Of a DNA stretch of 64,000 bases, positions 1,112 through 54,047 are shown in pieces. This DNA comes from Escherichia phage HY03, in sequence record NC_031047.1, one strand, 5' to 3'. The notes beneath the pieces were generated by a model. It was not told where the DNA came from. It saw only the letters and a program-made list of their open reading frames with translations, and made no database searches. The first letter of the stretch is position 1. Each line of letters begins with the position of its first letter. Made by a program: the position numbers and the translations under genes.

Positions 1112-1630
1112 ATGGCTTACTTTAACGAATGTAGTCAACTGATCGAAGGCGCTGATAAAGCTCAAAATGAATACTGGGATATTCTTGGTGATGAAAAAGA
1201 CCCGCTGCAGGTAATGCTTGACATGCAGAAATCTCTGCAGATTCGTTTAGCTAAAGATAAACCTGAATATAACCGTCATCCTGATGATTTGGCTACCGCA
1301 GGTGAAGTTGTTGATTGGCTGCGCAATCAGAAAGACTATATTGATGATGAATTCCGCGAACTTCTGACTTCTCTTGGTGGTATGAGCAATGGCGAAAAAG
1401 ATGCATCTGCTGTATGGAAACCTTGGAAGTCGCAGCATGGTGAACGCCGTGAAACTCTGATTACTGATTTGTCTCCACAAGACCAATTGGAAATTAAATT
1501 TGAAATGATTGATATTCTCCATTTCGTTCTGAACATGTTCCAAGGTCTTGGTCTTACAGCAGAAGAAATTTTTAAACTTTATTATCTGAAAAATGCTGAA
1601 AACTTTGCTCGTCAAGACCGAGGTTATTAA
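1112..1630 (+). CDS. 56: dCTP/dCDP pyrophosphatase gp56
   Basis: 172 aa from ATG 1112 (SD GGAAAAA upstream), MAYFNEC...FARQDRGY; matches recalled T4 gp56. ORF-track start 1097 is TTG. Confidence 0.9.
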   Translation: MAYFNECSQLIEGADKAQNEYWDILGDEKDPLQVMLDMQKSLQIRLAKDKPEYNRHPDDLATAGEVVDWLRNQKDYIDDEFRELLTSLGGMSNGEKDASAVWKPWKSQHGERRETLITDLSPQDQLEIKFEMIDILHFVLNMFQGLGLTAEEIFKLYYLKNAENFARQDRGY

Positions 1631-1830
1631 TGGCTCGTTTAAATAAACGTCAACTTAAGAAAGCCCACAAGAAACGTATTGACCAGCTATTTAAAAATTA
1701 TGACAAGGAGCTCACATACGAGCTCTTATCTAATCAGCTCCACAAAGCTTACACAATTAAAACTGGACATATACAATTAGGTAAGGTGCATGAAGAAGCC
1801 TTAAAATTAATTATAGAGCATTCAAAATGA
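1630..1830 (+). CDS. small early hypothetical protein (soc.2 position)
   Basis: 66-aa basic ORF, ATGA overlap with gene 56 stop. Confidence 0.5.
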   Translation: MARLNKRQLKKAHKKRIDQLFKNYDKELTYELLSNQLHKAYTIKTGHIQLGKVHEEALKLIIEHSK

Positions 1831-2036
1831 AATTTGATTTTTATGCATGGCAAAAAGCCGGGAGACCGGCTAGTCGAGCATTTGGTTCTGATGGATATAA
1901 TATTAGAGCTCATTGGAAGTTTAATGCTCCAGCCGATTATTCTCCGGTAATTATTAACGGTGATGTTGTTATATTAACTAAAATTGGGTATTTTAACGTT
2001 CCGCAAGAATTTATTATAAATAATCATGTAATTTAA
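1827..2036 (+). CDS. small early hypothetical protein (soc.1 position)
   Basis: 69-aa ORF, ATGA overlap with the upstream ORF. Confidence 0.5.
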   Translation: MKFDFYAWQKAGRPASRAFGSDGYNIRAHWKFNAPADYSPVIINGDVVILTKIGYFNVPQEFIINNHVI

Positions 2037-9959: not shown

Positions 9960-9961
9960 TT

Positions 9962-10501
9962 ATGAAATTTAATTATAATCCTGAATACACACCAAATCCG
10001 GTAGCTAAACTGATTGATTTTGATGTTGTAAGCACTTATGTATGCCCTGTTAAACCACTGGAAATTAAGGAACCTACTATGACTACCGCTATTGAAATCG
10101 GCAAAATCTACAAACTGGTTGAAACTGAAATTAAAACTAATGCCTTGATTTCTGGTCATAAAACTCTGACTGATGTTTTTGGCGAAGGCGAGTTTGTGGT
10201 TAAAAGTTTTTCAAAAAGTAATTGGTATGATAAGAATAAAGCTTACGTGATTCGAGCACAACGCTTAGATAATGATGAAGTAATTAAAACTATAGTCTTT
10301 GAAGCAGAGCTTATCCTCTTCCAAGAATGCGATCCTACTGACCTTTTGACTCGTGCTGTAGCTATCAAGACACCATTTATTTCGGTCTGTGGTTGGGTAA
10401 CAGACCAGTGGATTGAAGATGGTGTTGAACTCCTGAACGTTGTTCATGCAGGTGATTTTAGCGTAGTACCTCGTAGTGCAGTAGTAGCTATTTTGAATTA
10501 A
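9962..10501 (+). CDS. hypothetical early protein, paralog of ORF 10578
   Basis: 179 aa; C-terminal ITDQWIEDGVELLNVV resembles ITDQWVEDGVKLYNAV of the next ORF. Confidence 0.5.
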   Translation: MKFNYNPEYTPNPVAKLIDFDVVSTYVCPVKPLEIKEPTMTTAIEIGKIYKLVETEIKTNALISGHKTLTDVFGEGEFVVKSFSKSNWYDKNKAYVIRAQRLDNDEVIKTIVFEAELILFQECDPTDLLTRAVAIKTPFISVCGWVTDQWIEDGVELLNVVHAGDFSVVPRSAVVAILN

Positions 10502-12387: not shown

Positions 12388-13938
12388 ATGATTAAGAATG
12401 AAATTAAAATTCTGAGCGATATTGAACATATCAAAAAGCGTAGCGGCATGTACATTGGCTCTTCTGCTAATGAAATGCATGAGCGCTTTCTGTTTGGTAA
12501 ATGGGAAAGTGTTCAGTATGTACCTGGTCTTGTTAAGCTTATTGATGAAATTATCGATAACTCAGTAGATGAAGGTATTCGTACTAAGTTTAAATTCGCA
12601 AATAAAATTAATGTTACTATTAAAAACAATCAAGTAACAGTTGAAGATAACGGTCGCGGTATTCCACAGGCGATGGTTAAAACACCTACCGGTGAAGAAA
12701 TTCCTGGTCCTGTTGCTGCGTGGACTATTCCAAAAGCAGGTGGTAACTTCGGTGATGATAAAGAACGCGTCACTGGCGGTATGAATGGTGTTGGTTCTAG
12801 TTTGACAAACATTTTTTCTGTGATGTTTGTCGGTGAAACTGGTGATGGTCAAAATAATATTGTAGTTCGTTGTTCAAATGGCATGGAAAATAAATCATGG
12901 GAAGATATTCCCGGAAAATGGAAAGGAACTCGTGTTACTTTCATTCCTGATTTTATGTCATTTGAAACTAATGAGTTGTCCCAAGTTTATCTTGACATTA
13001 CATTAGATCGTCTCCAGACACTTGCTGTTGTTTATCCTGATATTCAATTTACCTTTAATGGTAAAAAGGTTCAGGGCAATTTTAAGAAATATGCACGCCA
13101 ATATGATGAACATGCTATCGTTCAAGAACAAGAAAATTGTTCTATTGCGGTCGGTCGTTCACCGGATGGTTTTCGTCAATTAACATACGTCAATAACATT
13201 CACACTAAGAATGGTGGTCATCACATTGACTGTGTTATGGATGATATTTGTGAAGACCTTATTCCACAAATCAAACGTAAGTTCAAAATTGATGTAACTA
13301 AAGCACGTGTCAAAGAATGTTTGACTATCGTTATGTTTGTTCGTGATATGAAAAACATGCGATTTGATTCTCAAACTAAAGAACGACTTACTTCTCCTTT
13401 TGGTGAAATTCGTAGTCATATTCAACTTGATGCTAAAAAGATTTCACGTGCTATTTTAAATAATGAAGCAATTTTAATGCCGATTATTGAAGCTGCTTTG
13501 GCTCGTAAATTGGCGGCAGAAAAAGCAGCAGAAACTAAAGCAGCTAAAAAGGCTTCTAAAGCTAAGGTTCATAAACATATTAAAGCGAATCTTTGCGGTA
13601 AAGATGCTGACACTACTCTTTTCTTGACTGAGGGTGATTCGGCTATCGGATATCTTATTGATGTTCGTGATAAAGAACTTCACGGCGGTTATCCATTGCG
13701 TGGTAAAGTTCTTAATAGCTGGGGTATGTCATATGCTGATATGCTTAAAAACAAAGAACTATTTGATATTTGCGCAATCACTGGATTAGTTCTTGGTGAA
13801 AAAGCGTTTGAAGAAAAAGAAGACGGTGAGTGGTTTACTCTCGAACTAAATGGTGATACAATTATTGTAAATGAAAATGATGAAGTACAGATTAATGGTA
13901 AATGGATAACAGTAGGTGAATTACGAAAAAATCTATAA
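12388..13938 (+). CDS. 39: DNA topoisomerase II large subunit gp39 (N-terminal ATPase part of the split gene)
   Basis: 516 aa from ATG 12388 (SD GAGGA); GHKL ATPase motifs; ends where mobA begins. Confidence 0.95.
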   Translation: MIKNEIKILSDIEHIKKRSGMYIGSSANEMHERFLFGKWESVQYVPGLVKLIDEIIDNSVDEGIRTKFKFANKINVTIKNNQVTVEDNGRGIPQAMVKTPTGEEIPGPVAAWTIPKAGGNFGDDKERVTGGMNGVGSSLTNIFSVMFVGETGDGQNNIVVRCSNGMENKSWEDIPGKWKGTRVTFIPDFMSFETNELSQVYLDITLDRLQTLAVVYPDIQFTFNGKKVQGNFKKYARQYDEHAIVQEQENCSIAVGRSPDGFRQLTYVNNIHTKNGGHHIDCVMDDICEDLIPQIKRKFKIDVTKARVKECLTIVMFVRDMKNMRFDSQTKERLTSPFGEIRSHIQLDAKKISRAILNNEAILMPIIEAALARKLAAEKAAETKAAKKASKAKVHKHIKANLCGKDADTTLFLTEGDSAIGYLIDVRDKELHGGYPLRGKVLNSWGMSYADMLKNKELFDICAITGLVLGEKAFEEKEDGEWFTLELNGDTIIVNENDEVQINGKWITVGELRKNL

Positions 13939-14734
13939 TGACTTAATAGCGCGGGGTAAAACTCGCGTTTCTAAATTTAAAGGTGAAATTCACCATATCC
14001 TTCCAAGATCAATGGGAGGTTCTGATGATAAAGAAAATTTGGTAAAACTGACTTTTCGTGAACACTTTTTAGCACATTTTCTACTATATAAAATTCATCG
14101 TAATCGTGAAATGGCATATGCGATGAATAGAATGTTAAACACTGAAAAATATTTACGTTCTAGTAAATTATATGAAATTGCTAGAATTTACCATCAAAGA
14201 GCAGTATCTGAATGGTCAAAAAACTTTATGAAAGATAAAGTTTTAATGAGAAGTATTAAATCGGGTAAATGCGCCTTATTAATTAAAGGATCATTTAACC
14301 CAAAGGAATGGTGCGGTGTTAATAAAGGTGTTAAGCTTCCTGGAATTAAAGGCATGACATGCTTTAAAAATGAAAAAGGCGAAGTTTTTCGTCTTCATGT
14401 TAATGATCCACGCATTAAAGCTGAAAAATTAGTTGGTATTGGAAATACTGTTGCTGCTACTGCAAAAGCAGCTGAACTTGAAAAAGCGAAACCATGGTAT
14501 AATAAATCAGCGACAAATCCAGAGGCTGTAAAATTAATACCAAATTTATATGAATGGTACGTCACGAAATATGACCCCGATCATTATAAACGAACGGGAG
14601 TTGCTAAATGGAAATCAGTTAATAATATAACTGTGAATTCAAAATTATTCGGCCGAGCATTTAATGAATTTAAACGCGGCTGGATTCCTGATGAAAAGTT
14701 CTACGAGGTGTATAATGAAATTTGTAAAAATTGA
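13916..14734 (+). CDS. mobA: MobA HNH homing endonuclease inserted between topoisomerase segments 39 and 60
   Basis: 272 aa, MNYEKIYNDLIARG...EIHHILPRSMGGSDDKENLV...HF HNH motif; N-terminus paralogous to mobE (46885). Confidence 0.85.
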   Translation: MNYEKIYNDLIARGKTRVSKFKGEIHHILPRSMGGSDDKENLVKLTFREHFLAHFLLYKIHRNREMAYAMNRMLNTEKYLRSSKLYEIARIYHQRAVSEWSKNFMKDKVLMRSIKSGKCALLIKGSFNPKEWCGVNKGVKLPGIKGMTCFKNEKGEVFRLHVNDPRIKAEKLVGIGNTVAATAKAAELEKAKPWYNKSATNPEAVKLIPNLYEWYVTKYDPDHYKRTGVAKWKSVNNITVNSKLFGRAFNEFKRGWIPDEKFYEVYNEICKN

Positions 14735-15247
14735 TTCTTCTAGCATTGATATGAAAAAATATAAATCGCAGAACAATGTCCGTCGTTCTATTAAATCCTC
14801 TTCAATGAACTATGCGAATGTCGCTATTATGACAGACGCAGATCACGATGGATAGCCTTCGGGCTATCTATAGAAATACCTCATAATTAAGAGATTATTG
14901 GATTAGGTTCTATTTATCCTTCTCTGCTCGGATTTTTTAGTAATTGGCCAGAATTGTTTGAGCAAGGACGAATTCGTTTTGTCAAAACTCCTGTAATCAT
15001 CGCTCAGGTCGGTAAAAAACAAGAATGGTTTTATACAGTCGCTGAATATGAGAGTGCCAAAGATGCTCTACCTAAACATAGCATCCGTTATATTAAAGGA
15101 CTTGGTTCTTTGGAAAAATCTGAATATCGTGAGATGATTCAAAACCCAGTATATGATGTTGTTAAACTTCCTGAGAATTGGAAAGAGCTTTTTGAAATGC
15201 TCATGGGAGATAATGCTGACCTTCGTAAAGAATGGATGAGCCAGTAG
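14715..15247 (+). CDS. 60: DNA topoisomerase II small subunit gp60, decoded by translational bypass: join(14715..14852,14903..15247)
   Basis: Codons 1-46 end at GGA 14850..14852 followed by TAG; decoding resumes at TTA 14903 (LGSIYPSLLGFFSNWPELFEQGRIRF...), matching recalled T4 gp60. Confidence 0.93.
14850..14905 (+). other. gene 60 translational bypass element (take-off GGA, UAG, stem-loop, 50-nt coding gap, landing GGA)
   Basis: GGA-TAG at 14850..14855; hairpin GATAGCC-TTCG-GGCTATC 14851..14868; landing GGA 14900..14902. Confidence 0.93.
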
Positions 15248-19560: not shown

Positions 19561-19587
19561 ACAACTATCAGCTACGGAGGAGTAAAA

Positions 19588-19851
19588 ATGAAATTTAAAT
19601 TCTTTTATGTTAAACATAAAATCACAGGTGAATTTGTTTATGTACAATATTCTGAAATTGACGATGCAACATCATTTATTTCATTGGGATTGTCTAAATA
19701 TGAATCAGACCAACCATATCTTACTGATAAATTGCAACAAGAGCGTTTGTTGAATGGTGATTTAAACAATTCTTGGGAAGTTCTTATTTACGATGATTTA
19801 AAGAAAGCTATTAAAGAAAATAATCTTGAAATCATTGAGATTGAACTATGA
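19588..19851 (+). CDS. hypothetical protein (ndd-region)
   Basis: 87-aa ORF with SD GGAGGAG upstream. Confidence 0.5.
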   Translation: MKFKFFYVKHKITGEFVYVQYSEIDDATSFISLGLSKYESDQPYLTDKLQQERLLNGDLNNSWEVLIYDDLKKAIKENNLEIIEIEL

Positions 19852-24220: not shown

Positions 24221-24368
24221 AAACATTTAAAATTGTCGTAGAATTTTATAACGACGAAGGTGTAGTCCATCTTAAAGCGGCCAACCAGTTTGATGCGGTA
24301 AGAGTATATTGTCAATGCTTTGAAAGTTCTAAACAAGCTATAAAAATTAAAAGTGTTGAGGAAACCAA

Positions 24369-24836
24369 ATGAAAACCTTCAAAGAGCGTCTTGAATTATT
24401 AGACCTGGCTTTATTACGTGAAACTCCAGAAAGTCTAGCAGCTAAATTACAGGCCTATGGCGACTACACCGAATATACGGAAGAGGATGTTTTAGAAGAG
24501 GTTCCTGAAATCTGTTGGCAAGTAGCTCATTGGAACAATAATGAAAAATATCAACGTCGAATTGTGTGTGCAGCCAACCGCTTTAAGTTAAAAGATGGTG
24601 GGACTCTGGTTATTCCTGACGTTCGTCATTATTCTAAAGATATGGCAGAAGTGCTCGACCAGGTAAGTGATAAACTTGTGTCGGACCATGTTTGCGGTGA
24701 AGACCAAGGGTTTATTGACCAATATAGTAATTATTGGACACGTGAAGAAGCAATGATTATTGCAACTTACGCTGGACAAGTACGTATTGAACGCGGTGGT
24801 AGTGAAAAAGAACTTTACTCTGAGGACCTTTACTAA
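24369..24836 (+). CDS. hypothetical acidic protein
   Basis: 155-aa ORF. Confidence 0.5.
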
Positions 24837-26805: not shown

Positions 26806-26813
26806 TATTTATT
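26806..26813 (-). promoter_or_regulatory. possible late promoter for t (AATAAATA, one mismatch to TATAAATA)
   Basis: Lies about 19 nt upstream of the t start codon on the - strand. Confidence 0.3.
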
Positions 26814-26817
26814 CAAA

Positions 26818-27612
26818 TTATACTCTTGGACCATATATTGCTCCAACATTTTGCCATGTTGGAGCTGATCCTATAACAGCATATCCGGCAGCGCCACCAG
26901 CTCCAACTTTTAGAACTTTACCGCCATCATGCCAGGCATTTTGTCCATTTGCGCCAGCATCACCACCCTGGCCAGAGTGAGCATTACCATAATTATAACC
27001 ACCTCCTGGGCCATCATAAGAAGCTGCGCCACCGGAATAACCTCCGCCTCCTCCTGGGCCAAATGGTCTTCCTCCACCGCCACCAATATCTTGCCACCTT
27101 GCGCCAGAGTGAGGACGATAAGCGATACCGCCACCACCGCCACCACCGCCACAAATTACTCCACCATTATTAATTCTTAATCGACCACCAATGTCATTTT
27201 GAATACAATGTCCACCCTGTTGACCATTACCATCTCCACCAGAATGAGTCCATCCACCTTGTCCACCTCTGCCCCACATATGAGCTCCACCGCTAATATT
27301 CAACTGAACATATTCATTTGGTGTATCTCCATACATGAAGAATAAAGGAACATCTCTAGAATATGATACCAAATTTCCTGTGATATTAAACACTATAGGT
27401 GCACTACCTGCCTCAAAACATCTATCTCGGAACCATTGACCATTAAAGTTATGGTCTGCTCCAAGTGTATGAATTACTTCAACAGATCGACCTATCATAT
27501 TACTCATCCAAAACGGAATTCCCATTCTCAATCTCTGCGCGGCACCACCCATCCAAGGGTCTCCAGTTTGTACCCTCGCAGACGATCCTACCCACGGTCC
27601 TGTTACTGCCAT
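26818..27612 (-). CDS. 38: gp38 tail-fibre adhesin, T2-type
   Basis: 264 aa from ATG 27612 (SD GGAGG); conserved Gly-rich islands GGGGGGG and [14 protein letters not shown] separating variable segments; unlike the short T4-type gp38 chaperone. Confidence 0.85.
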
Positions 27613-27624
27613 ATAAACCTCCAA

Positions 27625-27638
27625 GGGGCCGAAGCCCC
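27625..27638 (-). other. GGGGC-UUCG-GCCCC hairpin between gene 37 stop and gene 38 SD
   Basis: Perfect 5-bp GC stem with UUCG tetraloop on the late transcript. Confidence 0.6.
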
Positions 27639-27643
27639 TCTTA

Positions 27644-30600
27644 TTATTTTAACAACGATTTAACTAATGCTTTAAGTTCTTCGATTTCTGATTTAAGTTC
27701 TGCAATTTCTGCAGTATGCTCATTGATTGCAGCTGTATTTAAACCAATTACACCGTTATAGTTCAAACGAAGTAAAGCTTCACCATCCGGGTCACCTTCA
27801 ACTAATTCAGGCAAAATAGCTTGAACTTCTTGAGCTATCAAACCAGCGTTAGGTTCCCATTTCTGATTACCTTCTTCATCTGTTCCACGTTTCTGCATAT
27901 AAGTGTAACCGTTAATTTTAGAAAGCTTCTGAGAAGCATTTTCAAATTTAACGAGGTCTTTTTTAACGCGAATATCAGAACGGACATAAACATCACGGAC
28001 AAACGTTGAATAGCTGTCATTCGCCTGGACTAGATGACCGTGAGAAATAATCGCTTTATCAACTTCGGTCCACAAACCACCATGACTTCCCCATAGTCCT
28101 GAGTGTTCTTGATACATCGTACCCCATGATGCAATATGCTGTCCGTTAGCAAACATGTTAATACGACCATCACCACCATGAACTAATCCGGTATCATTAT
28201 CACCAATAACAAGACATGGTCCAGTCCATGCAGGGTCACCTCCACCAGCTGATAATCTTGCTCCAGTTTGAACCATGTTAGGAGCATACAGAACTCCATC
28301 GTGGTGGAATTCATATATAGCTTGCGGGTCAGAACCATTTTCCTGGTTACCTACACGAATAATACCTTGTGCCCATTTGTTAGTGATACGGCGCATACCA
28401 AAATCTACACCAGATACGTATCCTTCATTCGTAATAACAGATTTTCCTTTGATAATTGGATAATAACTATCATTACCGACGTAGCCAAAATCCACAAATA
28501 TCGGAGCTTCTTGACGCCATTGACTTCCCCAATCGCCAGCTTGGTGCGCAGTCCAGTATGCTCCATTTATATAAAGACGATCCCTATTAAAATTAAAAGT
28601 AGCAGACCCTTGAGGAGATAAAGCAATTTCTCCGACCTCATTAATGTTAACACCGCTGTTAGTTTGGAAACTGTAAAATGATATAGTATTATCGGCGCCG
28701 CCGTTACCAACATACCAGTTATCAACGCCTGCTTTTTGTCCTTTCATATAACCGGATTCGCTTGCAGCACTATTAATAACAATAACATCCGAGTTGGCAT
28801 TAAGAGTTAAACGGCCTGTCATTGTATCGCCTTCTTTCGAAACACGAGTCGCAATAGCATCGCGAATATTTGTAATGTCTCCTGCTGCAGTAAACGTTTT
28901 CCAGATATCAGACCAGATGTTACCATTGCGAGCAATAGTAGCTTCGCCGCCGCCGACAGAAACGTTATCTGGGAAGTTAACAGTACCGTCTTGATTAAAA
29001 CGAGACGTATGGCCTTGTGAACCATCTTCTTTCAGATGATGAATAACGAATGTACCAGAATTAATTTCAGTACCTAAAGACCAAACTGCTTTACCATTTA
29101 AGAATTTCTGTTTAACAATAGGATAATATTTGCTTACAGCATCATCATCAATTTCCTGGAAAATAGGAGCCGCTTGAGCATATTGAACGGCATAACCTCC
29201 AGCCCCAGCTCCATGACCAGCAAATTTAATATAGCCATTTGCTGCGAACGTATTGTAACTTGATTGTAAATCTGGAATAGTAACTTTACCAGTATCTAAA
29301 GCCATACTAAACGGGCGAAGTGGACCGATATCGCCGTGTTTACCTTCACCGTAAGCAGTTGGAATAATATGAAGACTGCCTTCTGAACGTCTAAAAATGG
29401 CTCCATAATCTGCATTCCAAATGCGAAGACCATTTACAGCATTTGTCGCGATTTCACCGGCTGCGCTGATTGTACCGTCAAATGTAGCATTTTTTACTAC
29501 TGTCAAGTTTTCATTAACAATCTGGGTGCCATTTATAACCGATTCGACTTTACCTGCAGTTGTTCGTTGAATATAACTCATCCAGCTAGTTGCATCAGAA
29601 ATTTCCATGACATTTTTGCGATTACCTTCGCTAGGATTAATAAATGTATTACCCCACACAGAAATTGTCATGTTATCCACAGAACTACTACCTGTTGTGT
29701 TACCTCTAAACATCAGCGTAGAAGAATTATTACGACCATCAATATTAACAGAACCACCAATAACGTCAATATTACCAGGAGTAACTAACAAACCGCCGTG
29801 AGTATTAATGTTTGTGACACCTTTACCGCGGAAATAGTGATGATATCTACCGCCTTGATAATATCCCAAAAGAGTCTGACCATCTCCAAACGCGTTATTA
29901 TCATGATATGTAACAACAGTAGCGAGAGCATAGTTTTCAGTAGGAGGAGTAGTTAAATCGGTTCCATTGGTAGAATATCCAGCTACAAATTTTCTTAGGC
30001 TAGTTGTTTCGCTAGGGCTAAATAAAAATGTTTTCGTTCCATTATTGACGCTGAAATAATATCCATCCTGGTGCCATTTAAATCCAGTATCATTATCCCC
30101 TAAAGCAATACTAGATGGTCCTAGTATTGAATAATCTTTATTGCCAGGTGTTAAACCGATAGAAATTGAGTGACTCGATTTAATTCCGCCGCTCCATGTA
30201 AATGACCAAAGATAAGCGTCTAGCCCATCTCCGCTGTACCAAGTTATTCCATCATTATCTTTAACTTCATGGAAAATGCCAGAACCGACTGCATTACGCA
30301 TGACACGGAGATGATTAATAGCAGTAGTGCTTTCAGACAGTGGAACATTATCTGCCATCGAATAAATGTCATAATCACCTGTAGATTTATTATTAGTAAT
30401 GACTTTGTTGGTCAAAATCTGAGGAGTTGACATAGATTTCCATGCTGATACTTCAGGTGAAGTAAATAGGCCACTACCTGAAAATGCATAAGTGCTTTCG
30501 CTACCAGCGGCGTAGTCTTGAACCCTGATATTAAGTACTTGTGTAGTTAAACCGTCATTAGCAGGAGAAAAAATAATACCGCGTTCACGGTCGGCGGAAT

Positions 30601-30973
30601 CATGAAAACGAACGTGTGCCGTTCCTGAACTTTTTGTAATAAGTTCTCCACCCTCAGTCATAATCTGCCCGGCGGCAATAATATCGCGAGTTACTCGAGC
30701 AATACCAGTTAAATTAAAATTACCTGTCTGAGTGAAAGTGCCATTTAAAGTATAATCACCAGTTTGATTATAGTTTCCTTTATGAATAACATTTCCGTCA
30801 ATACTACCGCCCTTAGCAAAACCCAGATCAATGATATTTCCTTGGTCATCTTTAGTAAAAAGTACGCGGTCTTTTAAATTTATAGCCAATTCACCTTCGG
30901 CTAATACTGAAGCGGCAGGACGTGCTCCTGCGGTTTTGCTTCTTTTAAATTGTATTTGTTTTAAAGTAGCCAT
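27644..30973 (-). CDS. 37: gp37 long tail fibre distal subunit with C-terminal intramolecular chaperone domain
   Basis: 1109 aa; N-terminus [13 protein letters not shown]...[17 protein letters not shown] matches gp37; C-terminal ~110 aa carry an S74-like signature. Confidence 0.9.
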
Positions 30974-38960: not shown

Positions 38961-38968
38961 TTGCTTAT

Positions 38969-38976
38969 TATAAATA
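38969..38976 (+). promoter_or_regulatory. late promoter TATAAATA upstream of gene 32
   Basis: Exact TATAAATA about 100 nt upstream of the gene 32 ATG. Confidence 0.6.
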
Positions 38977-38993
38977 GATTATAATTATCTCAC

Positions 38994-39073
38994 TGACCAG
39001 CTATGAGGTCATACATCGTCATAGCACCAACTGTTAATTAAATTAAATTAAATTAAATTAAAAGGAAATAAAA
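38994..39073 (+). promoter_or_regulatory. gene 32 autoregulatory translational operator (pseudoknot plus UUAAA repeats)
   Basis: TGACC/GGTCA and GCTATGA/TCATAGC interleaved stems 38994..39025; (TTAAA)x5 at about 39036..39062 just upstream of the SD. Confidence 0.8.
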
Positions 39074-39982
39074 ATGTTTAAACGTAAATCTACTGCTGAA
39101 CTCGCTGCACAAATGGCTAAACTGGCTGGAAATAAAGGTGGTTTTTCTTCTGAAGATAAAGGCGAGTGGAAACTGAAACTCGATAATGCGGGTAACGGTC
39201 AAGCAGTAATTCGTTTTCTTCCGTCTAAAAATGATGAACAGGCACCATTCGCAATTCTTGTAAATCACGGTTTCAAGAAAAACGGTAAATGGTATATTGA
39301 AACATGTTCATCTACCCACGGTGATTACGATTCTTGTCCAGTATGTCAGTACATCAGTAAAAATGATTTGTACAACACTGACAATAAAGAGTACAGTCTT
39401 GTTAAACGTAAAACTTCTTACTGGGCTAACATTCTTGTAGTAAAAGACCCAGCTGCTCCAGAAAACGAAGGTAAAGTATTTAAATACCGTTTCGGTAAGA
39501 AAATCTGGGATAAAATCAACGCGATGATTGCAGTTGATGTTGAAATGGGTGAAACTCCGGTTGATGTAACTTGTCCGTGGGAAGGTGCTAACTTTGTACT
39601 GAAAGTTAAACAAGTTTCTGGTTTTAGTAACTACGACGAATCTAAATTCCTGAATCAATCTGCGATTCCAAACATTGATGATGAATCTTTCCAGAAAGAA
39701 CTGTTCGAACAAATGGTTGACCTTTCTGAAATGACTTCTAAAGATAAATTCAAATCGTTTGAAGAACTGAGCACTAAGTTCAGTCAAGTTATGGGAACTG
39801 CTGCTATGGGTGGTGCCGCAGCAACTGCCGCTAAGAAAGCTGATAAAGTTGCTGATGATTTGGATGCATTCAATGTTGATGACTTCAAAACAAAAACTGA
39901 AGATGATTTTATGAGCTCAAGCTCTGGTAGTTCATCTAGTGCTGATGACACGGACCTGGATGACCTTTTGAATGACCTTTAA
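39074..39982 (+). CDS. 32: gp32 single-stranded DNA-binding protein
   Basis: 301 aa; matches recalled T4 gp32 including the acidic C-terminus. Confidence 0.97.
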
Positions 39983-40004: not shown

Positions 40005-40030
40005 GGGGACCCTAGAGGTCCCCTTTTTTA
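40005..40030 (+). terminator. Rho-independent terminator after gene 32
   Basis: GGGGACC-CTAGA-GGTCCCC followed by TTTTTTAT. Confidence 0.85.
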
Positions 40031-40055: not shown

Positions 40056-40085
40056 GTTTACATCCTTGTCCTTCCATGGTACTAT
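40056..40085 (+). promoter_or_regulatory. T4-type early promoter
   Basis: GTTTAC 40056..40061, TACTAT 40080..40085. Confidence 0.7.
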
Positions 40086-40402: not shown

Positions 40403-40789
40403 GTGGAAGTTGGAAAAACTTATATCATTAACCCTTTATTTAAAAATGACTTTGCTAACGAGTGCCGTTGCAATGTAATGATGCTAAATTTAATAGAGAA
40501 GCACGGACCTAGTTTTGTTGTAGATGAAATGGAAAGTGATGATTGTGCTGGTGAATGTGTGGTACGTGTAACTATGGAAGATGGTACTGAATACATGGCG
40601 GGTGGCCCACTTGAGACGTATTTTGAGATTTACTCTGAAGAATTCAAATACTTTACTGAGGTAACTTTAGAAAAGCCTCAATCCGCTAATGAAGGTATAG
40701 TTTCTGGCGTAACAAAAATTCACTGCATTGTTGACGAAAATAATGTAGACGAAATCATTGAACTTTTGCGAAAAACTTTTAAGGCCTAA
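40403..40789 (+). CDS. hypothetical protein (frd.2 position), GTG start
   Basis: 128-aa ORF, SD GAGGAAA before GTG. Confidence 0.5.
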   Translation: MEVGKTYIINPLFKNDFANECRCNVMMLNLIEKHGPSFVVDEMESDDCAGECVVRVTMEDGTEYMAGGPLETYFEIYSEEFKYFTEVTLEKPQSANEGIVSGVTKIHCIVDENNVDEIIELLRKTFKA

Positions 40790-40790
40790 T

Positions 40791-41051
40791 ATGACTAAAG
40801 ATGATTTCCTGGATGCGGTAGAAAAAGCTAGTGAGAAATTTGAAGTGATGGGTGTACGGGTCCATAAAGACAGAAATTACGGACTCGATATTCAAACGTA
40901 TTCGTTATGGCTTGTGGGTGAACACAGTCTTGTAACCAGTTTAGTTATGGGTGTCGATACCTATCCTCTATTAGTTAAGTTCAGAAGTATGGAAAAGGCT
41001 ACTAAAGAAATGATTAAGCTTGGTAAGTGGCTCGATAAAATTCAAAAATAA
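40791..41051 (+). CDS. hypothetical protein (frd.1 position)
   Basis: 86 aa from ATG 40791. Confidence 0.5.
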   Translation: MTKDDFLDAVEKASEKFEVMGVRVHKDRNYGLDIQTYSLWLVGEHSLVTSLVMGVDTYPLLVKFRSMEKATKEMIKLGKWLDKIQK

Positions 41052-41053
41052 TT

Positions 41054-41083
41054 GTTTACAGCAGGGTAGTAGTGTGATACTAT
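41054..41083 (+). promoter_or_regulatory. T4-type early promoter
   Basis: GTTTAC 41054..41059, TG-n-TACTAT 41078..41083. Confidence 0.7.
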
Positions 41084-41111
41084 TACCCTATCAACTACTG
41101 AGGAGAATAAA

Positions 41112-41364: not shown

Positions 41365-44064
<2,700 letters not shown>

Positions 44065-44630: not shown

Positions 44631-46885
44631 TTAATGTTATCAAAAGTAGTGGTGTTTCTCAGAGCTTTGACCCGCAAAAAATTATTAAAGTTTTATCTTG
44701 GGCAGCTGAAGGAACATCAGTAGATCCTTATGAATTATATGAAAATATTAAATCTTATCTCCGTGATGGAATGACAACTGATGATATTCAGACTATTGTC
44801 ATTAAGGCTGCTGCAAATTCTATTTCAGTTGAAGAGCCTGATTACCAATATGTAGCCGCTCGCTGTTTAATGTTTGCTCTTCGTAAGCATGTTTATGGGC
44901 AGTATGAACCACGTTCATTTATTGACCATATTTCTTATTGTGTAAATGCAGGTAAATATGACCCTGAATTGTTGTCAAAATATTCTGCAGAAGAAATTAC
45001 ATTTTTAGAATCAAAAATTAAGCACGAGCGGGATATGGAATTTACTTATTCCGGGGCGATGCAATTAAAAGAAAAATATCTAGTTAAAGATAAAACCACT
45101 GGTCAAATTTATGAAACTCCGCAGTTTGCATTTATGACTATTGGAATGGCACTGCATCAAGATGAACCTGTTGATAGATTAAAACATGTTATCCGTTTTT
45201 ATGAAGCAGTATCTACTCGACAGATTTCATTGCCAACTCCTATTATGGCTGGTTGTCGTACTCCTACTCGACAGTTCAGTTCATGCGTTGTTATTGAGGC
45301 AGGAGATTCGCTGAAGTCTATCAATAAGGCTTCTGCTTCAATTGTTGAATATATCTCCAAACGAGCTGGAATCGGCATTAACGTTGGTATGATTCGTGCC
45401 GAAGGTTCTAAGATTGGCATGGGTGAAGTACGCCATACTGGTGTTATTCCTTTTTGGAAACATTTTCAGACTGCTGTTAAATCATGCTCACAGGGTGGAA
45501 TTCGTGGCGGCGCTGCTACTGCTTATTATCCTATTTGGCATTTGGAAGTTGAAAATCTTCTCGTTTTGAAAAATAACAAAGGCGTAGAAGAAAACCGCAT
45601 CCGTCATATGGATTATAGTGTTCAGCTGAATGATTTGATGATGGAACGATTCGGAAAGAATGATTATATTACTTTGTTCAGTCCGCATGAAATGGGTGGC
45701 GAGCTTTATTATTCTTATTTTAAAGACCAAGACCGTTTCCGTGAATTATACGAAGCAGCAGAAAAAGACCCTAATATTCGTAAAAAGCGTATTAAAGCCC
45801 GTGAACTATTTGAATTGCTCATGACTGAACGTTCAGGGACAGCAAGGATTTATGTACAGTTCATTGATAATACGAATAACTATACTCCGTTTATTCGTGA
45901 AAAGGCACCTATTCGTCAGAGTAACTTGTGCTGTGAAATTGCTATTCCAACAAATGATGTGAATAGCCCTGATGCTGAAATTGGATTGTGTACTCTCTCT
46001 GCATTCGTACTGGATAATTTTGACTGGCAAGACCAAGATAAAATTAATGAATTGGCAGAAGTCCAAGTTCGTGCTCTTGATAATCTTTTGGATTACCAAG
46101 GATATCCAGTTCCTGAAGCAGAAAAAGCTAAAAAGCGTCGTAACCTCGGTGTAGGTGTTACCAACTATGCAGCTTGGCTGGCAAGTAACTTTGCTTCTTA
46201 TGAAGATGCTAACGATTTAACACATGAACTATTTGAGAGATTACAGTATGGACTCATTAAAGCATCCATTAAGCTCGCCAAAGAAAAAGGACCTTGCGAA
46301 TATTATTCAGACACTCGTTGGTCTCGAGGCGAATTACCTATCGACTGGTACAATAAAAAGATTGACCAAATCGCAGCTCCAAAATACGTTTGTGACTGGT
46401 CGGCGCTGCGGGAAGACCTTAAGCTCTTTGGCATCCGTAATAGCACATTATCAGCACTTATGCCATGTGAGTCATCTTCCCAAGTTTCTAACAGTACAAA
46501 TGGTATCGAGCCTCCACGTGGACCAGTCTCTGTTAAAGAATCAAAAGAGGGCTCCTTTAATCAAGTCGTGCCCAATATTGAGCATAACATAGACCTTTAC
46601 GACTATACATGGAAATTAGCTAAGAAAGGTAATAAACCTTATCTTACGCAGGTAGCTATTATGCTGAAATGGGTATGTCAATCAGCTTCAGCGAATACAT
46701 ATTATGACCCGCAGATTTTTCCAAAAGGAAAGGTTCCAATGTCTGTAATGATTGATGACCTTTTGTATTTTTGGTATTTTGGCGGAAAAAATTTCTATTA
46801 TCATAATACTCGTGATGGTTCCGGTACTGATGATTACGAAATAGAAACTCCAAAAGCCGATGATTGCGCAGCGTGTAAATTGTAA
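44621..46885 (+). CDS. nrdA: aerobic ribonucleotide reductase large subunit
   Basis: 754 aa; class Ia RNR alpha; matches recalled T4 NrdA length. Confidence 0.95.
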   Translation: MQLINVIKSSGVSQSFDPQKIIKVLSWAAEGTSVDPYELYENIKSYLRDGMTTDDIQTIVIKAAANSISVEEPDYQYVAARCLMFALRKHVYGQYEPRSFIDHISYCVNAGKYDPELLSKYSAEEITFLESKIKHERDMEFTYSGAMQLKEKYLVKDKTTGQIYETPQFAFMTIGMALHQDEPVDRLKHVIRFYEAVSTRQISLPTPIMAGCRTPTRQFSSCVVIEAGDSLKSINKASASIVEYISKRAGIGINVGMIRAEGSKIGMGEVRHTGVIPFWKHFQTAVKSCSQGGIRGGAATAYYPIWHLEVENLLVLKNNKGVEENRIRHMDYSVQLNDLMMERFGKNDYITLFSPHEMGGELYYSYFKDQDRFRELYEAAEKDPNIRKKRIKARELFELLMTERSGTARIYVQFIDNTNNYTPFIREKAPIRQSNLCCEIAIPTNDVNSPDAEIGLCTLSAFVLDNFDWQDQDKINELAEVQVRALDNLLDYQGYPVPEAEKAKKRRNLGVGVTNYAAWLASNFASYEDANDLTHELFERLQYGLIKASIKLAKEKGPCEYYSDTRWSRGELPIDWYNKKIDQIAAPKYVCDWSALREDLKLFGIRNSTLSALMPCESSSQVSNSTNGIEPPRGPVSVKESKEGSFNQVVPNIEHNIDLYDYTWKLAKKGNKPYLTQVAIMLKWVCQSASANTYYDPQIFPKGKVPMSVMIDDLLYFWYFGGKNFYYHNTRDGSGTDDYEIETPKADDCAACKL

Positions 46886-47526
46886 TGAATTATCAAAAAA
46901 TCTATAATGACCTAATTTCCCGAGCTCAGGCTCGGGAATCTTTATCAGAATATAAAGAGACACATCATATAATCCCTAGATGTATGGGAGGTTCTGATGA
47001 TAAGGAAAATTTAGTTGAATTAACAGGTAGAGAGCATTTTATAGCGCATTGGCTTTTATGTAAAATATATGACACTCCAGGATTAAAGAAAGCTTTTGGT
47101 TTAATGTGCTTGACTGGTAAAAATCGCTCATATAAAATTTCTTCTCAACTATACGAATTAGGTAGACGACGTTTGTCTGAAGCTGCTATAGGACGTGAAG
47201 TTTCTACAGAAACCAGAGAAAAGATAAGTAGAGCTCTTAAAGGAAGGAAATTTACTAAAGAGCATTTAGCTCGCATGAGAAAACCTAAAACTGAAGAAGC
47301 TAAAAAGAATATAGCTGCTGCTAAAGTCGGCGTGCTTAATCCAATGTATGGTACAATCTCTCCAACGAGAGATGTTCCTCATACTAAAGAAACTCGCGAT
47401 TTGATTTCTTTGAGAACTAAACAAGGTGCAGAGTATCCGCCGTGTCCGCATTGTGGAAAGAAAGTTAATAAAGGTAATGCTTTAAGATGGCATTATGATA
47501 AATGTAAATTTAAGGATTCTAAATGA
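46885..47526 (+). CDS. mobE: MobE free-standing HNH homing endonuclease
   Basis: 213 aa; ETHHIIPRCMGGSDDKENLV...HF HNH motif; sits between nrdA and nrdB; paralog of mobA. Confidence 0.8.
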   Translation: MNYQKIYNDLISRAQARESLSEYKETHHIIPRCMGGSDDKENLVELTGREHFIAHWLLCKIYDTPGLKKAFGLMCLTGKNRSYKISSQLYELGRRRLSEAAIGREVSTETREKISRALKGRKFTKEHLARMRKPKTEEAKKNIAAAKVGVLNPMYGTISPTRDVPHTKETRDLISLRTKQGAEYPPCPHCGKKVNKGNALRWHYDKCKFKDSK

Positions 47527-49797
47527 GTACAGTTTTTAATACATCACCTGTTAATATTTTGACTGAGCCGATGTTTTTTGGTTCTGGATTGGGTTTAGCT
47601 CGATATGATATTCAACGGCATCGAGTATTTGAAGAACTTATTGAGAAGTCTTTGTCATTTTTCTGGCGTCCTGAAGAAGTAAACTTGATGATGGATGCTG
47701 CACAATTTAACAAGCTTCCTCAGTATCAGCAGAATATTTTTACTAACAACTTGAAGTATCAATCACTTCTAGATAGCATTCAGGGTCGTGCACCGTCTGC
47801 TGTACTTATGTCATTAATTTCAGACCCAAGTCTTGATACATGGGTTGCTACATGGACTTTTAGTGAAACTATTCACAGTCGTTCATATACTCATATCATG
47901 CGAAATCTTTATACTGATCCATCGAAGGTATTTGATGAGATTGTACTAGATGAAGCTATCATGAAACGTGCTGAATCTATCGGTCGCTATTATGATGATG
48001 TTCTGACTAAAACCCGTGAATGGGAAAATGCTAAAGAATTTACAGAACTAGCTAAAGAATCTCCTGATGCTGTTTTTCGTTTAAATCGAGCTATTAAACA
48101 AGAAGCCGAAGCTAAACGAGCACTAATGAAATCTCTTTACCTTTGCCTTCATGTAATCAATGCATTGGAAGCTATTCGTTTTTATGTATCTTTCGCGTAA
48201 AATGCGCCTTTAAGCAGTAATGCTTATCGAAAACTCCTTTAATTGCTGGAAAATCCAGAAATGGAAAACTAGCAGCCAAGGTTTTGCTTGCACCTTTAAT
48301 TAGTATAATATTATAAATATGATGATTATACTTTTAAGAGGATGCACAATTGAATTATAGAAAAATTTGGATAGATGCTAACGGACCGATACCTAAAGAT
48401 TCTGATGGAAGAACGTATGAAATCCATCATAAAGATGGTAACCGTGAAAATAATGATTTAGATAATTTGATGTGTCTTTCTATACAGGAACATTATGATA
48501 TACATTTAGCTCAAAAAGATTACCAGGCATGTCACGCTATAAAGCTTAGAATGAAATATTCTCCTGAAGAAATTTCTGAATTAGCTTCTAAAGCTGCAAA
48601 ATCTAGAGAAATCCAGGTTTTTAATATCCCTGAAGTGAGAGCTAAAAATATTGCCTCTATTAAATCTAAGATAGAAAACGGTACATTTCATCTTTTAAGT
48701 GGTGAAATACAACGTAAATCTAATTTAAATCGGGTTGCATTAGGTATACATAATTTTCAACAAGCTGAGCATATTACAAAAGTTAAAGAACGTAATATTG
48801 CAGCTATAAAAGAAGGTACTCATGCATTTTGCGGTGGTAAAATGCAGTCAGAAACTCAGTCAAAACGAGTAAATGACGGTTCACATCATTTCTTATCAGA
48901 AGACCATAAGAAAAGAACATCAGCAAAAACATTAGAAATGGTTAAGAACGGGACCCATCCTGCACAAAAAGAAATCACATGTGATTTCTGTGGTCACACT
49001 GGTAAAGGTCCTGGATTTTATCTAAAACATAATGACAGATGTAAATTAAATCCAAATAGAATTCAATTGAATTGTCCATATTGTGATAAGAAAGATTTAT
49101 CACCATCAACATATAAACGATGGCACGGCGACAATTGCAAAACAAGGTTCAACGACTAGTCTTCGGACGTAGGGTCAAGCGACTCGAAATGGGGAGAATC
49201 CCTCCGGGATTGTGATATAGTCTGGACTGCATGGTAACATGCAGCAGTTCATAAGAGAACGGGTTGAGAATTAGCGAGCTCAATCGAACATACGGTACCT
49301 TTAACTTCCATAAGAACATGGAAATCATGGAAGGTAATGCCAAGATTATGAAGTTCATTGCACGTGATGAGCAGCTTCACCTTAAAGGCACCCAATATAT
49401 TATTCGTCAACTTCAATCCGGTACTGATGGCGATGAATGGGTTAAAATTGCTCAAGAGTGTGAACAAGAAGCAGTTGATATTTTCATGGAAGTTAACCGC
49501 CAAGAAAAAGATTGGGCAGTTCATTTATTTAAAGATGGTGATGTTCCTGGATTAAATACAAATAGCATGTGGAGCTTTATTGATTACTTAACTGTATCTC
49601 GTATGAAACAGTGCGGTCTTCCATGCCCAATTACCGATGCTCCGGTTAAACATCCATATCCTTGGATTCGTGAATACCTTAATTCTGATAATGTTCAATC
49701 CGCGCCACAAGAAGTAGAACTGTCATCTTACCTTGTTGCACAGATTGATAATGATGTTGATGATAAAGTTATGATGAGTTTTAAAAAATACTTTTAA
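47523..49797 (+). CDS. nrdB: aerobic ribonucleotide reductase small subunit, intron-interrupted: join(47523..48198,49295..49797)
   Basis: Junction deduced from the conserved R2 motif (...RFYVSFA-C-TFNFHKNMEIMEGNAK...); exon 1 ends at U 48198, intron ends at G 49294. Confidence 0.8.
48312..48319 (+). promoter_or_regulatory. late promoter TATAAATA inside the nrdB intron, upstream of I-TevIII
   Basis: Exact TATAAATA about 30 nt upstream of the ORF start. Confidence 0.65.
48350..49159 (+). CDS. I-TevIII: I-TevIII HNH homing endonuclease, full length (intron-encoded)
   Basis: 269 aa; EIHHKDGNRENNDLDNLMCLSIQEHYDIH HNH motif; C-terminal CxxC...CxxC zinc-finger pairs; apparent TTG start after SD GAGGA. 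Confidence 0.8.
   Translation: MNYRKIWIDANGPIPKDSDGRTYEIHHKDGNRENNDLDNLMCLSIQEHYDIHLAQKDYQACHAIKLRMKYSPEEISELASKAAKSREIQVFNIPEVRAKNIASIKSKIENGTFHLLSGEIQRKSNLNRVALGIHNFQQAEHITKVKERNIAAIKEGTHAFCGGKMQSETQSKRVNDGSHHFLSEDHKKRTSAKTLEMVKNGTHPAQKEITCDFCGHTGKGPGFYLKHNDRCKLNPNRIQLNCPYCDKKDLSPSTYKRWHGDNCKTRFND

Positions 49798-52847: not shown

Positions 52848-54047
<1,200 letters not shown>

Follow-up and report, generated by a model that had tools for sequence, protein, structure and literature searches.

Very probably, the interval from 46885 to 47526 is mobE, a gene for a free-standing HNH homing endonuclease, and the wider pattern to which it belongs is the normal presence/absence mosaic of homing endonuclease genes in T-even phages. 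The stretch of DNA analyzed here (the window) is a 64-kb Tequatrovirus segment that makes up about 38% of a genome of ~168 kb and corresponds to the reverse complement of the T4 map from 17.7 kb to 1 and from 168.9 to 125 kb. Exactly four homing endonuclease genes are found in the 64-kb window, namely mobA, I-TevI, mobE, and I-TevIII. These are the same four that an earlier note on this DNA had named, and Pfam domains and open reading frames (ORFs) agree for each. The same note had stated that the endonuclease complement differs from that of T4. This is correct for the loci in the window but does not stand as a statement on the complement of the whole phage, because 6 of the 15 T4 endonuclease loci are covered and seg genes may be present in other parts of the genome. 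The set of four genes held in common with T4 also differs from the T4 reference, in that mobE is another allele, I-TevIII is full length, and mobA is intact.

All 15 T4 homing endonuclease proteins served as tblastn queries, with a cut-off of E<=1, and the Pfam cut-offs were 21.4 bits for HNH (PF01844) and 20.4 bits for NUMOD3. In a six-frame HMM scan of the window, the only GIY-YIG domain was that of I-TevI, and the only three HNH domains were those of mobE, mobA, and I-TevIII. I-TevI is the sole GIY-YIG homing endonuclease gene in the window. No nuclease HMM matched the segments without an alignment to T4 (9948-10388, 19579-19815, 24230-24408, 40419-41097, 41388-41589, and 52851-53145), which were inspected for additional endonuclease genes. 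The tail-fibre region at 26813-30775 (genes 37 and 38) is likewise unaligned to T4; other unaligned segments are shorter than 450 bp. Features discussed below are collected in Table 1.

Table 1. Endonuclease genes, their host elements, and associated sites (coordinates are those of the window)
Feature	Coordinates	Strand	Remarks
Gene 56 (dCTPase), SegF target gene	1112..1630	+	Third allele
Two small ORFs in 56-soc interval	1630..2036	+	66 aa and 69 aa (second DUF7422)
MobA mobile cassette	13806..14911	+	1106 nt; splits topoisomerase large-subunit gene into 39 and 60
mobA, free-standing HNH endonuclease	13916..14734	+	272 aa, GTG start, VNYEKIYNDLIARG; ORF intact
Translational bypass ("hop") element, gene 60	14853..14902	+	50 nt; exact match to T4 misc_feature 2803-2852
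59-32 intergenic region, unoccupied segG site	38961..39073	+	Near-identical to T2, T6, and JEP6
Gene 32, SegG target gene	39074..39982	+	97.9% identical to T2, 96.2% to T4
Group I intron in td, with I-TevI	42737..43752	+	1016 nt; gap relative to intronless T2 td
I-TevI, GIY-YIG homing endonuclease	42868..43605	+	Pfam GIY-YIG, I-TevI_ZnF, I-TevI_DNA-bd
mobE, free-standing HNH homing (nicking) endonuclease	46885..47526	+	T6-type allele; ORF of 213 aa, starts MNYQKIYNDLISRA
Hairpin and T-run in mobE 5' end	46917..46938	+	9 pairs, 6 G-C; TTCCCGAGCTCAGGCTCGGGAA then TCTTTAT
TGCTTA, 13 nt, TACAAT in mobE 3' part	47333..47357	+	Read from sequence; conserved with T4
nrdB exon 1	47523..48198	+	Aligned to intronless T2 and T6 nrdB; junction read
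nrdB nt 122-126, T4 MobE nick position in T2 nrdB	47644..47648	+	Position from PMC2790892
Group I intron in nrdB, with I-TevIII	48199..49294	+	1096 nt; gap relative to T2 and T6 nrdB
I-TevIII, intron-encoded HNH endonuclease	48350..49159	+	269 aa, TTG start; Pfam HNH_3 48.8 bits
nrdB exon 2	49295..49797	+	96.6% identical to T2, 97.4% to T6

The mobE ORF is packed tightly between nrdA and nrdB. Its ATG overlaps the nrdA stop codon (TAATGA), and its own stop codon overlaps the ATG of nrdB. The HNH catalytic motif lies in the N-terminal domain, Pfam HNH and NUMOD3 score 24.4 and 35.7 bits, and an HMM built from T4 MobB-E matches at E=7e-38. The gene is free-standing and patchy among relatives: the corresponding gap in T2 is only 51 nt, and the 5' end of mobE occurs in 124 records of the phage collection, compared with 847 that contain the nrd region. 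The proposal that the N-termini of MobA and MobE are paralogous is borne out by 57% identity over 95 aa (E=2e-29).

The MobE of T6 (AP018814, BBF63646) is 98.1% identical to the protein of the window over 213 aa, with four amino acid differences, and T6-like MobE is also present in LZ7, SHFML-26, JEP6, and slur02. In T6, mobE lies between nrdA and nrdB as it does here, is of equal length, and is accompanied by equal substitutions around the nrdB nick site. The two phages differ immediately downstream, where the nrdB gene of T6 is intronless whereas that of the window carries the I-TevIII intron.

T4 MobE, which is the experimentally characterized allele, has 232 aa in re-sequenced T4 (MT984581). 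Its HNH N-terminus (aa 1-55) departs from that of the window protein only at positions 19 and 48, where residues are substituted, and the two proteins end in 83 identical aa that comprise NUMOD3 repeats and a zinc-finger-like CPHC...C/H end. In contrast, the central segment of ~75 residues is 19 aa shorter in the window and is not alignable with T4 at the DNA level. Neither mobB nor mobD found support as the source of this T6-type middle, their DNA similarity of 76-77% being confined to the HNH part. RB3 carries a different allele of 243 aa with an unrelated C-terminal half. In the T4 record NC_000866, the gene appears as two, mobE (141 aa) and nrdB.1 (83 aa), on account of 2 extra nucleotides. 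A frameshifted pseudogene is ruled out as the explanation for this pair, given that re-sequenced T4 (MT984581) and ELT1 each have one 699-nt ORF.

The UAAUGA coupling to nrdA and an internal terminator are common to T4 mobE and the mobE of the window. The hairpin near the 5' end is identical in sequence to that of T4, and it fits the weak intrinsic terminator mapped within T4 mobE (PMC2790892, PMC2988022). Toward the 3' end, the paired motifs at 47333-47357 represent a candidate MotA-type middle promoter for nrdB. In T4, the nrdB middle promoter has been placed between the annotated 3' end of mobE and nrdB (PMC2988022).

Site-specific nicking and trans-homing, with super-Mendelian inheritance in mixed infection, have been demonstrated for T4 MobE alone, which nicks T2 nrdB at nt 122-126 and whose mobility is abolished when residues 33-62 are deleted (PMC2790892). 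Alignment of nt 121-135 of nrdB gives GAGAAGTCTTTGTCA for the window, GAAAAGCAGTTGTCA for T2, and GAGAAATCTTTATCA for T6. The nrdB gene of the window thus has T6-type substitutions around the nick position and is unlike T2 and equal to other carriers of T6-type mobE in this segment, a pattern that linkage alone would also yield. Nick-site haplotypes track the mobE allele, with T4 grouped with ELT1, T6 with JEP6 and the window, and T2 with RB3; T4 and the window accordingly have different haplotypes. We infer that the MobE of the window would nick at the T4 nick site, bearing in mind that this allele differs from the tested T4 protein over ~75 central residues. Exchange of this central linker may instead retarget the nick, such that T4-type and T6-type MobE are not cross-immune and could compete, although we regard this as unlikely. 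If true, the nrdB locus would be driven by two active nucleases, with intact I-TevIII situated ~800 bp downstream of the other. This would contrast with T4, in which MobE rescues a dead I-TevIII.

The second HNH gene, mobA, is part of a cassette whose dimensions match those of a described element (bioRxiv 10.1101/2022.08.31.505936). The unsplit topoisomerase gene of T2 aligns to 12388-13805 and 14912-15247, and the insert replaces 64 nt of T2. An HNH ORF thus splits the topoisomerase gene in its Toprim region and is accompanied by the 50-nt bypass element, the combination that defines the MobA cassette. Upstream, mobA overlaps gene 39 by 23 nt. A local HNH HMM matches MobA at E=5e-28, and the Pfam HNH score of 20.1 bits is just below the cut-off. 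Despite this score, MobA is clearly paralogous to MobE. The mobA DNA is 99.5% identical to that of HY01 and JEP6 and 98.9% identical to that of re-sequenced T4, and the cassettes of these three phages have the same dimensions as the one described here: an insert of 1106 nt for 64 nt, a MobA of 272 aa with a GTG start, and the 23-nt overlap. In NC_000866, 11 extra bases led to the annotation of mobA as a fragment plus 60.1, whereas the ORF in the window is intact.

The two remaining genes reside in putative group I introns, which were called by aligning the window with T2, whose td and nrdB genes are intronless, and with the annotated introns of T4 and RB3. Both inserts, of 1016 nt in td and 1096 nt in nrdB, follow a U and end in G. 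At the gathering threshold, Rfam gave no match anywhere in the window, and the introns hold large ORF inserts. In the td intron, RF00028 has a weak match at 43673-43702 (18.9 bits, below the gathering score). A focused E-value scan found RF00028 in the nrdB intron at 49004-49244, also below threshold (35.6 bits, E=2e-6). I-TevI is 100% identical in amino acid sequence to the proteins of T4, T6, and RB3.

Along its entire length, the nrdB intron is 95.4% identical to that of RB3; in its 3' 396 nt, identity to T4 reaches 99.5%. The active I-TevIII of RB3 shares 97.0% amino acid identity with the protein of the window, and its length (269 aa), TTG start, Shine-Dalgarno layout, and intron position are all the same. 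In contrast, T4 I-TevIII is internally deleted, with only aa 1-24 and 181-269 remaining. RB3 pairs its I-TevIII with its own mobE allele and carries segG, which the window lacks. The exon-1 bases that adjoin the nrdB intron in the window are unlike the T4/RB3 haplotype.

It could be argued that the four endonuclease ORFs include at least one non-functional relic, kept only for embedded signals of essential neighbors, such as the nrdB promoter. Embedded promoters have been argued to favor the keeping of endonuclease genes (PMC2988022), the MotA-box/-10-like motif within the 3' part of mobE (47333-47357) could be of this kind, and T4 I-TevIII persists even though it is defective (PMC2790892). 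However, all four ORFs are full length and uninterrupted, and their catalytic HNH and GIY-YIG segments are conserved. Moreover, I-TevI has exactly the amino acid sequence of the active enzyme of T4, the active enzyme of RB3 shares 97% identity with I-TevIII, and MobA is intact, a form for which activity has been reported in relatives (bioRxiv 10.1101/2022.08.31.505936). We therefore consider it improbable that any of the four is a relic.

In contrast to these occupied loci, two sites that hold a seg gene in T4 are empty in the window. The earlier note placed segF adjacent to gene 56 of T4, and in NC_000866 segF indeed occupies 15606-16280, between gene 56 and soc. In the window, 60 nt separate the end of dam (1051) from the start of gene 56 (1112), as had been estimated. 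As had also been described, gene 56 is followed by two tiny ORFs (1630-1830, 66 aa; 1827-2036, 69 aa) and then by soc (2053-2295). The results of tblastn, the six-frame HMM scan, and blastn alignment concur that there is no GIY-YIG ORF between 56 and soc. The two small ORFs have no nuclease domain detectable with Pfam and no similarity to SegF by tblastn. In the blastn alignment, positions 1631-2014 (384 bp) stand in place of T4 segF (659 bp). The 56-soc intervals of T2 and T6 are collinear with this arrangement, each with two small ORFs, whereas the gene 56 allele of the window is distinct and only ~73% identical to those of T2 and T6. DNA identity of gene 56 is 75.6% to T4 and 73-74% to T2, T6, and RB3. 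In RB3, a deletion at this junction has removed the two-small-ORF segment except for ~30 nt at its start and ~25 nt at its end.

A similar situation is encountered upstream of gene 32, where T4 carries segG between genes 59 and 32 (NC_000866, 147909-148541), again in agreement with the note. With gene 59 of the window ending at 38960 and gene 32 beginning at 39074, the reported gap of 113 nt is reproduced, and the same three methods agree that it lacks a GIY-YIG ORF. A terminator and a promoter had been described after gene 32, which fits the G+C hairpin plus T-run at 40005-40023 and the promoter-like site at 40057-40085. The 59-32 region includes promoter-like motifs (TTGCTTA / TATAAATA / TATAAT) and an A/T-rich gene-32 leader, and positions 38962-38996 (35 bp) stand in place of T4 segG (623 bp) in the blastn alignment. 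As in the window, the gap in T2 and T6 holds a promoter/operator only, and it is 99 nt long in these phages because the leader of the window has more TTAAA repeats. When segG-containing phages (T4 and RB3) were compared with those lacking the gene (T2, T6, JEP6, GRNsp7, and the window), only two bases of gene 32, nt 276 and nt 459, were fixed for this difference, with the segG-minus base at each of them in the window. We take SegG to cut ~332 bp from its own insertion site, which would place the cut near nt 276 of gene 32; this coincidence is a lead.

By their sequence, the segF and segG positions are seemingly un-invaded sites of the T2/T6 type, with no trace of a seg gene. An alternative is that both genes were once present and were then deleted, leaving the sites as scars. 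Loss of endonuclease genes does occur, as exemplified by the internal deletion in T4 I-TevIII, the deletion at the 56-soc junction of RB3, and the progressive loss of MobA elements (bioRxiv 10.1101/2022.08.31.505936). Yet both seg sites are base-for-base collinear with their counterparts in T2 and T6. In T4, segF stands in place of two ORFs that are complete in the 56-soc interval of the window, and segG stands in place of a promoter-bearing segment of 35 nt that is present in the 59-32 interval of the window. Because deletion of a seg gene would not recreate the sequences that it had replaced, these observations count against loss by deletion. In addition, tblastn with SegF and SegG gave no match in the window, and thus no remnant, at E<=1. 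Deletion is for these reasons very unlikely. Replacement through recombination with an empty-site phage is indistinguishable from a site that was never invaded. An assembly or consensus artefact, such as a mixed population collapsed to the shorter allele, is scarcely credible. Nothing in the sequence speaks for it, the junctions show no seam and recur in numerous independent genomes (T2, T6, JEP6, and GRNsp7 among them), and 172 records cover at least 80% of the 56-soc arrangement.

In the phage collection, segF is present in 50 records and segG in 142, of about 670-850 records. Most records, like T2, T6, and JEP6, have neither gene, which makes T4 the outlier. T2 lacks all six elements considered here (mobA, segF, segG, I-TevI, mobE, and I-TevIII), whereas T6 has only I-TevI and mobE, and RB3 has segG, I-TevI, mobE, and I-TevIII and lacks mobA and segF. 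This comparison, together with published work (PMC2988022), upholds the suggestion that such presence/absence polymorphism is typical of selfish homing endonuclease genes and usable for typing.

The haplotype of the window is apparently recombinant, with T6-type mobE, RB3-type intact I-TevIII, HY01/JEP6-type mobA, and both seg sites empty. The exact combination of mobA, I-TevI, T6-type mobE, and intact I-TevIII without segF and segG is absent from all records of the phage collection. Each single element is already known, and the patchy endonuclease content of T-even phages and the biology of these elements have been described for 15-30 years. The boundaries of the elements are clean when aligned to empty alleles. 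Furthermore, whereas the flanking DNA is ~95-96% identical, the elements themselves reach higher values: 99.6% (T4) and 99.8% (T6) for the td intron, 99.5% for mobA, and 99.5% for the 3' part of the nrdB intron. Such better conservation of the elements than of their flanks is a signature of recent spread.

The mechanism of this spread has been established for T4 MobE, and we infer its operation here by homology. The mobE gene would lack a promoter of its own and would be read from the nrdA message via translational coupling at the UAAUGA overlap, as in T4, with its output damped by the weak terminator hairpin in its own 5' end. During mixed infection, MobE would nick the non-coding strand of nrdB (nt 122-126) in a phage that lacks mobE, and the recipient would then acquire mobE, together with flanking DNA, through recombinational repair off the mobE-containing genome. 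In the carrier itself, nrdB has substitutions at the nick site. Likewise, MobA would nick the unsplit topoisomerase gene while the 50-nt bypass protects the carrier. I-TevI and I-TevIII are carried in the group I introns of td and nrdB, respectively.

The value of these results is mostly one of record-keeping: four selfish elements and two empty sites are now annotated correctly, and the haplotype can serve as a fingerprint for this phage. SegF and SegG cause the exclusion of T2 genes 56 and 32 (PMC2330249, PMC2988022). If the empty-site reading is true, then this phage, when crossed with T4, would be a recipient rather than a donor at genes 56 and 32. The prediction, hedged by a gene 56 that is ~75% identical to the T4 and T2 alleles, is that its gene 56 and gene 32 regions would be excluded from the progeny of such crosses.

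The window carries mobA, mobE, I-TevI, and I-TevIII and has no seg ORF beside gene 56 or gene 32, as the earlier note had reported from the sequence alone. By megablast the window belongs to Tequatrovirus, and over long stretches its best matches reach only ~95-96% identity: JEP6, a51, and HP3 at positions 1-25000 and, around the nrd genes, vB_ECOLIGBLB0003 and SHFML-26. Read in the direction of the early genes, its plus strand is the reverse complement of the T4 map. Alignment to T4 NC_000866 is collinear, descending the T4 map from 17.7 kb (dam) as far as rIIA and resuming at 168.9 kb (rIIB) to end at ~125 kb (gene 30). Six of the fifteen homing-endonuclease loci of T4 (PMC2988022, Table 1) fall within this region: segF, mobA, segG, I-TevI, mobE, and I-TevIII.

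T4 does carry seg genes at these two sites, as the note had it. NC_000866 has segF at 15606-16280 between genes 56 and soc and segG at 147909-148541 between genes 59 and 32, and thus does not share the absence seen in the window, on which three independent tests concur. With all fifteen T4 endonuclease proteins as tblastn queries, SegF and SegG gave no match in the window even at E<=1, and the strongest Seg-protein match outside I-TevI was between the MobE NUMOD3 DNA-binding motif and SegA residues 96-157. Alignment by blastn showed shorter segments in place of both T4 genes. Finally, the T4 GIY-YIG and HNH domains were modelled as HMMs and searched for in the window's 1178 stop-to-stop segments, covering all six frames. 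The only GIY-YIG gene recovered was I-TevI (E=1e-30), alongside three of HNH type: mobE (7e-38), mobA (5e-28), and I-TevIII (0.013; 48.8 bits with Pfam HNH_3). No nuclease domain was found in window segments that cannot be aligned to T4, all of which are <450 bp except for the tail-fibre region. The tail-fibre tip is not T4-type, and its gene 38 encodes a T2/T6-style glycine-rich adhesin with 58% amino acid identity to T6 gp38. All coordinates and spacings reported earlier for the endonuclease genes and gaps proved correct on re-measurement.

Features of the window, with positions
Feature	Position	Description
mobE	46885-47526	213 aa; ATG shares a base with nrdA stop, stop overlaps nrdB ATG
mobA	13916-14734	272 aa; GTG start; 23-nt overlap with gene 39
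I-TevI	42868-43605	
I-TevIII	48350-49159	269 aa
mobA cassette	13806-14911	1106 nt; replaces 64 nt of unsplit T2 topoisomerase gene
Gene 60	14715-15247	
Translational bypass	14853-14902	50 nt; within mobA cassette
Gene 56	1112-1630	dCTPase; SegF target
56-soc segment	1631-2014	384 bp in place of 659 bp of T4 segF
59-32 segment	38962-38996	35 bp in place of 623 bp of T4 segG
Gene-32 leader	39030-39073	
Genes 37 and 38	26813-30775	no DNA-level alignment to T4
Tail-fibre tip genes	26818-27624 (-), 27644-30973 (-)	
Hairpin in mobE	46917-46938	
TGCTTA-13 nt-TACAAT motif	47333-47357	at place described for T4 nrdB middle promoter
nrdB exon 1	47523-48198	

At both seg sites the window resembles other T-even phages. 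The 56-soc interval is collinear with those of T2 and T6, and all three share a pair of ORFs (66 aa and 69 aa, the second being Pfam DUF7422) directly 3' of gene 56 and followed by soc, where T4 has segF. RB3 does not have this intact pair; its junction (15742-15824 of L010, part of the RB3 genome) is a deletion derivative reduced to the ends of the segment (~30 nt from the first ORF, ~25 nt from the second). Further records, e.g., Killian and PYPS2T, hold other endonucleases here, so that with segF, the ORF pair, and its deletion form the locus has at least four states in T-even phages. Between dam and gene 56 lie 60 nt. Gene 56 itself is a third allele, ~73-76% identical to either of two other types: at the DNA level it matches T4 at 75.6% and the type found in T2, T6, and RB3, whose copies agree with one another at 97%, at ~73%. 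The first 120 nt of the window's gene are nearer T4 (87%) and its last 40 nt nearer T2/T6 (92-95%), and the allele also occurs in OES_C-2 and G3F8 (~96.5% identity).

The 59-32 gap (113 nt) is nearly base-for-base the T2/T6/JEP6 sequence and holds TTGCTTA, TATAAATA, and TATAAT motifs with an A/T-rich gene-32 leader; the gene-32 promoters of T4 sit within segG (PMC2988022). By sequence, the 56-soc and 59-32 sites are intact alternative alleles and not deletion scars. Gene 32 is 97.9% identical to that of T2 and is followed by a terminator-like hairpin and a promoter-like site. Only nt 276 and nt 459 of this gene are fixed between phages with and without segG, and the window has the segG-minus base at both. 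The leader contains more TTAAA units than in relatives, with four copies between TTAA and TTAAAA(A)GG compared with three in JEP6, two in T4, and one in T2/T6. This stretch is the A/U-rich part of the gp32 autoregulatory translational operator.

The earlier note was right on the presence of the four endonuclease genes but missed their differences from the T4 reference. The window's mobE is the T6 allele (98.1% amino acid identity to T6 MobE across all 213 residues). It shares its first 55 and last 83 residues with T4 MobE, whereas its center is 19 residues shorter and unalignable at the DNA level. RB3 has a third allele (243 aa) with only the HNH head in common. Likewise, I-TevIII is full length and 97.0% identical to the active RB3 enzyme, whereas in T4 only residues 1-24 and 181-269 remain (also PMC2790892). 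Intact mobA lies in a cassette that matches the element in bioRxiv 10.1101/2022.08.31.505936, and its start codon and gene 39 overlap are as described for T4 (PMC2988022). The bypassed segment of gene 60 (the “ribosome hop”) is base-for-base that of T4. The N-termini of MobA and MobE are 57% identical over 95 residues.

In NC_000866 (139716-140416; 14717-15417 of L002, our part of that record), T4 mobE appears as two genes, a 141-aa mobE and an 83-aa nrdB.1. A reading as frameshift decay is rejected in view of a single 699-nt ORF (232 aa) in re-sequenced T4 MT984581 (301-999 of its part L015) and in ELT1. Because NC_000866 is 2 nt longer, the split belongs to the old record, and “nrdB.1” corresponds to the NUMOD3/zinc-finger C-terminus of MobE. 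The mobA region of NC_000866 also exceeds that of re-sequenced T4 records by 11 nt; in the latter, mobA is annotated as one gene.

Homing elements of the window and four T-even phages
Phage	mobA	56-soc	59-32	td intron/I-TevI	mobE	nrdB intron/I-TevIII
T2	absent	two small ORFs	empty	absent	absent	absent
T6	absent	two small ORFs	empty	present	T6-type	absent
RB3	absent	two ORFs deleted	segG	present	RB3-type	I-TevIII intact
T4	present	segF	segG	present	T4-type	I-TevIII deleted
Window	intact	two small ORFs	empty	present	T6-type	I-TevIII intact

Among phage records, of which 667 include the gene 56 region and 847 the nrd region, segF is present in 50 and segG in 142. Most records therefore lack these genes, which makes T4 the outlier, as already stated in the field (PMC2988022). 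Other elements are mobA (43 records), the T6-type mobE center (34), and I-TevIII (118, full length in 83). Because mobA and T6-type mobE occur together only in JEP6 and GRNsp7, both with intronless nrdB, the window's exact combination is found in no record of this collection. Salmonella phage GRNsp7 (5439-5688 of its part L012) has two annotated td pieces just 249 nt apart with no I-TevI ORF between, which suggests a td intron that lost its endonuclease gene.

The T4 mobE AUG overlaps the nrdA stop, suggesting translational coupling, and ~30% of transcripts end at a hairpin in the mobE 5' end; T4 MobE nicks T2 nrdB on the non-coding strand (nt 122-126), and repair carries mobE, and often also the downstream intron, into T2 (PMC2790892, PMC2988022). 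The overlap and hairpin are conserved in the window. T6-type MobE would presumably have the same activity and nick site. Each mobE allele is linked to its own nrdB nick-site haplotype, and the window's substitutions around nrdB nt 121-135 are those of T6 and JEP6, unlike T2 and unlike the T4-type-carrier haplotype. That the linker difference between T6-type and T4-type MobE alters target choice seems improbable to us and, if true, would be of modest interest. Exon 1 of nrdB is mosaic: over nt 1-140 it resembles T6/JEP6 (97-98%) and not T2/RB3 (72-80%), a hypervariable block at nt 480-600 is JEP6/RB3-like (88-100%) with only 43-70% identity to T2, T4, and T6, and the 60 nt before the intron are unlike the haplotype common to the intron carriers T4, RB3, and ELT1.

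A sign that elements spread horizontally in recent times is their conservation against surroundings that are ~95-96% identical: between phages, identity reaches 99.6-99.8% in the td intron and 99.5% both in mobA and in the nrdB intron's 3' part. For each element, some named phage has a relative at least 97% identical, and for T-even phages this is textbook biology. The observation is confirmed, and the view that such a pattern is typical of selfish elements and useful for strain typing is supported; the unmatched combination backs its use as a fingerprint, nothing beyond. When T4 is crossed with T2, SegF and SegG are what causes T2 genes 56 and 32 to be excluded (PMC2330249), and by analogy the phage represented by the window, whose divergent gene 56 may or may not be susceptible, would be the recipient.
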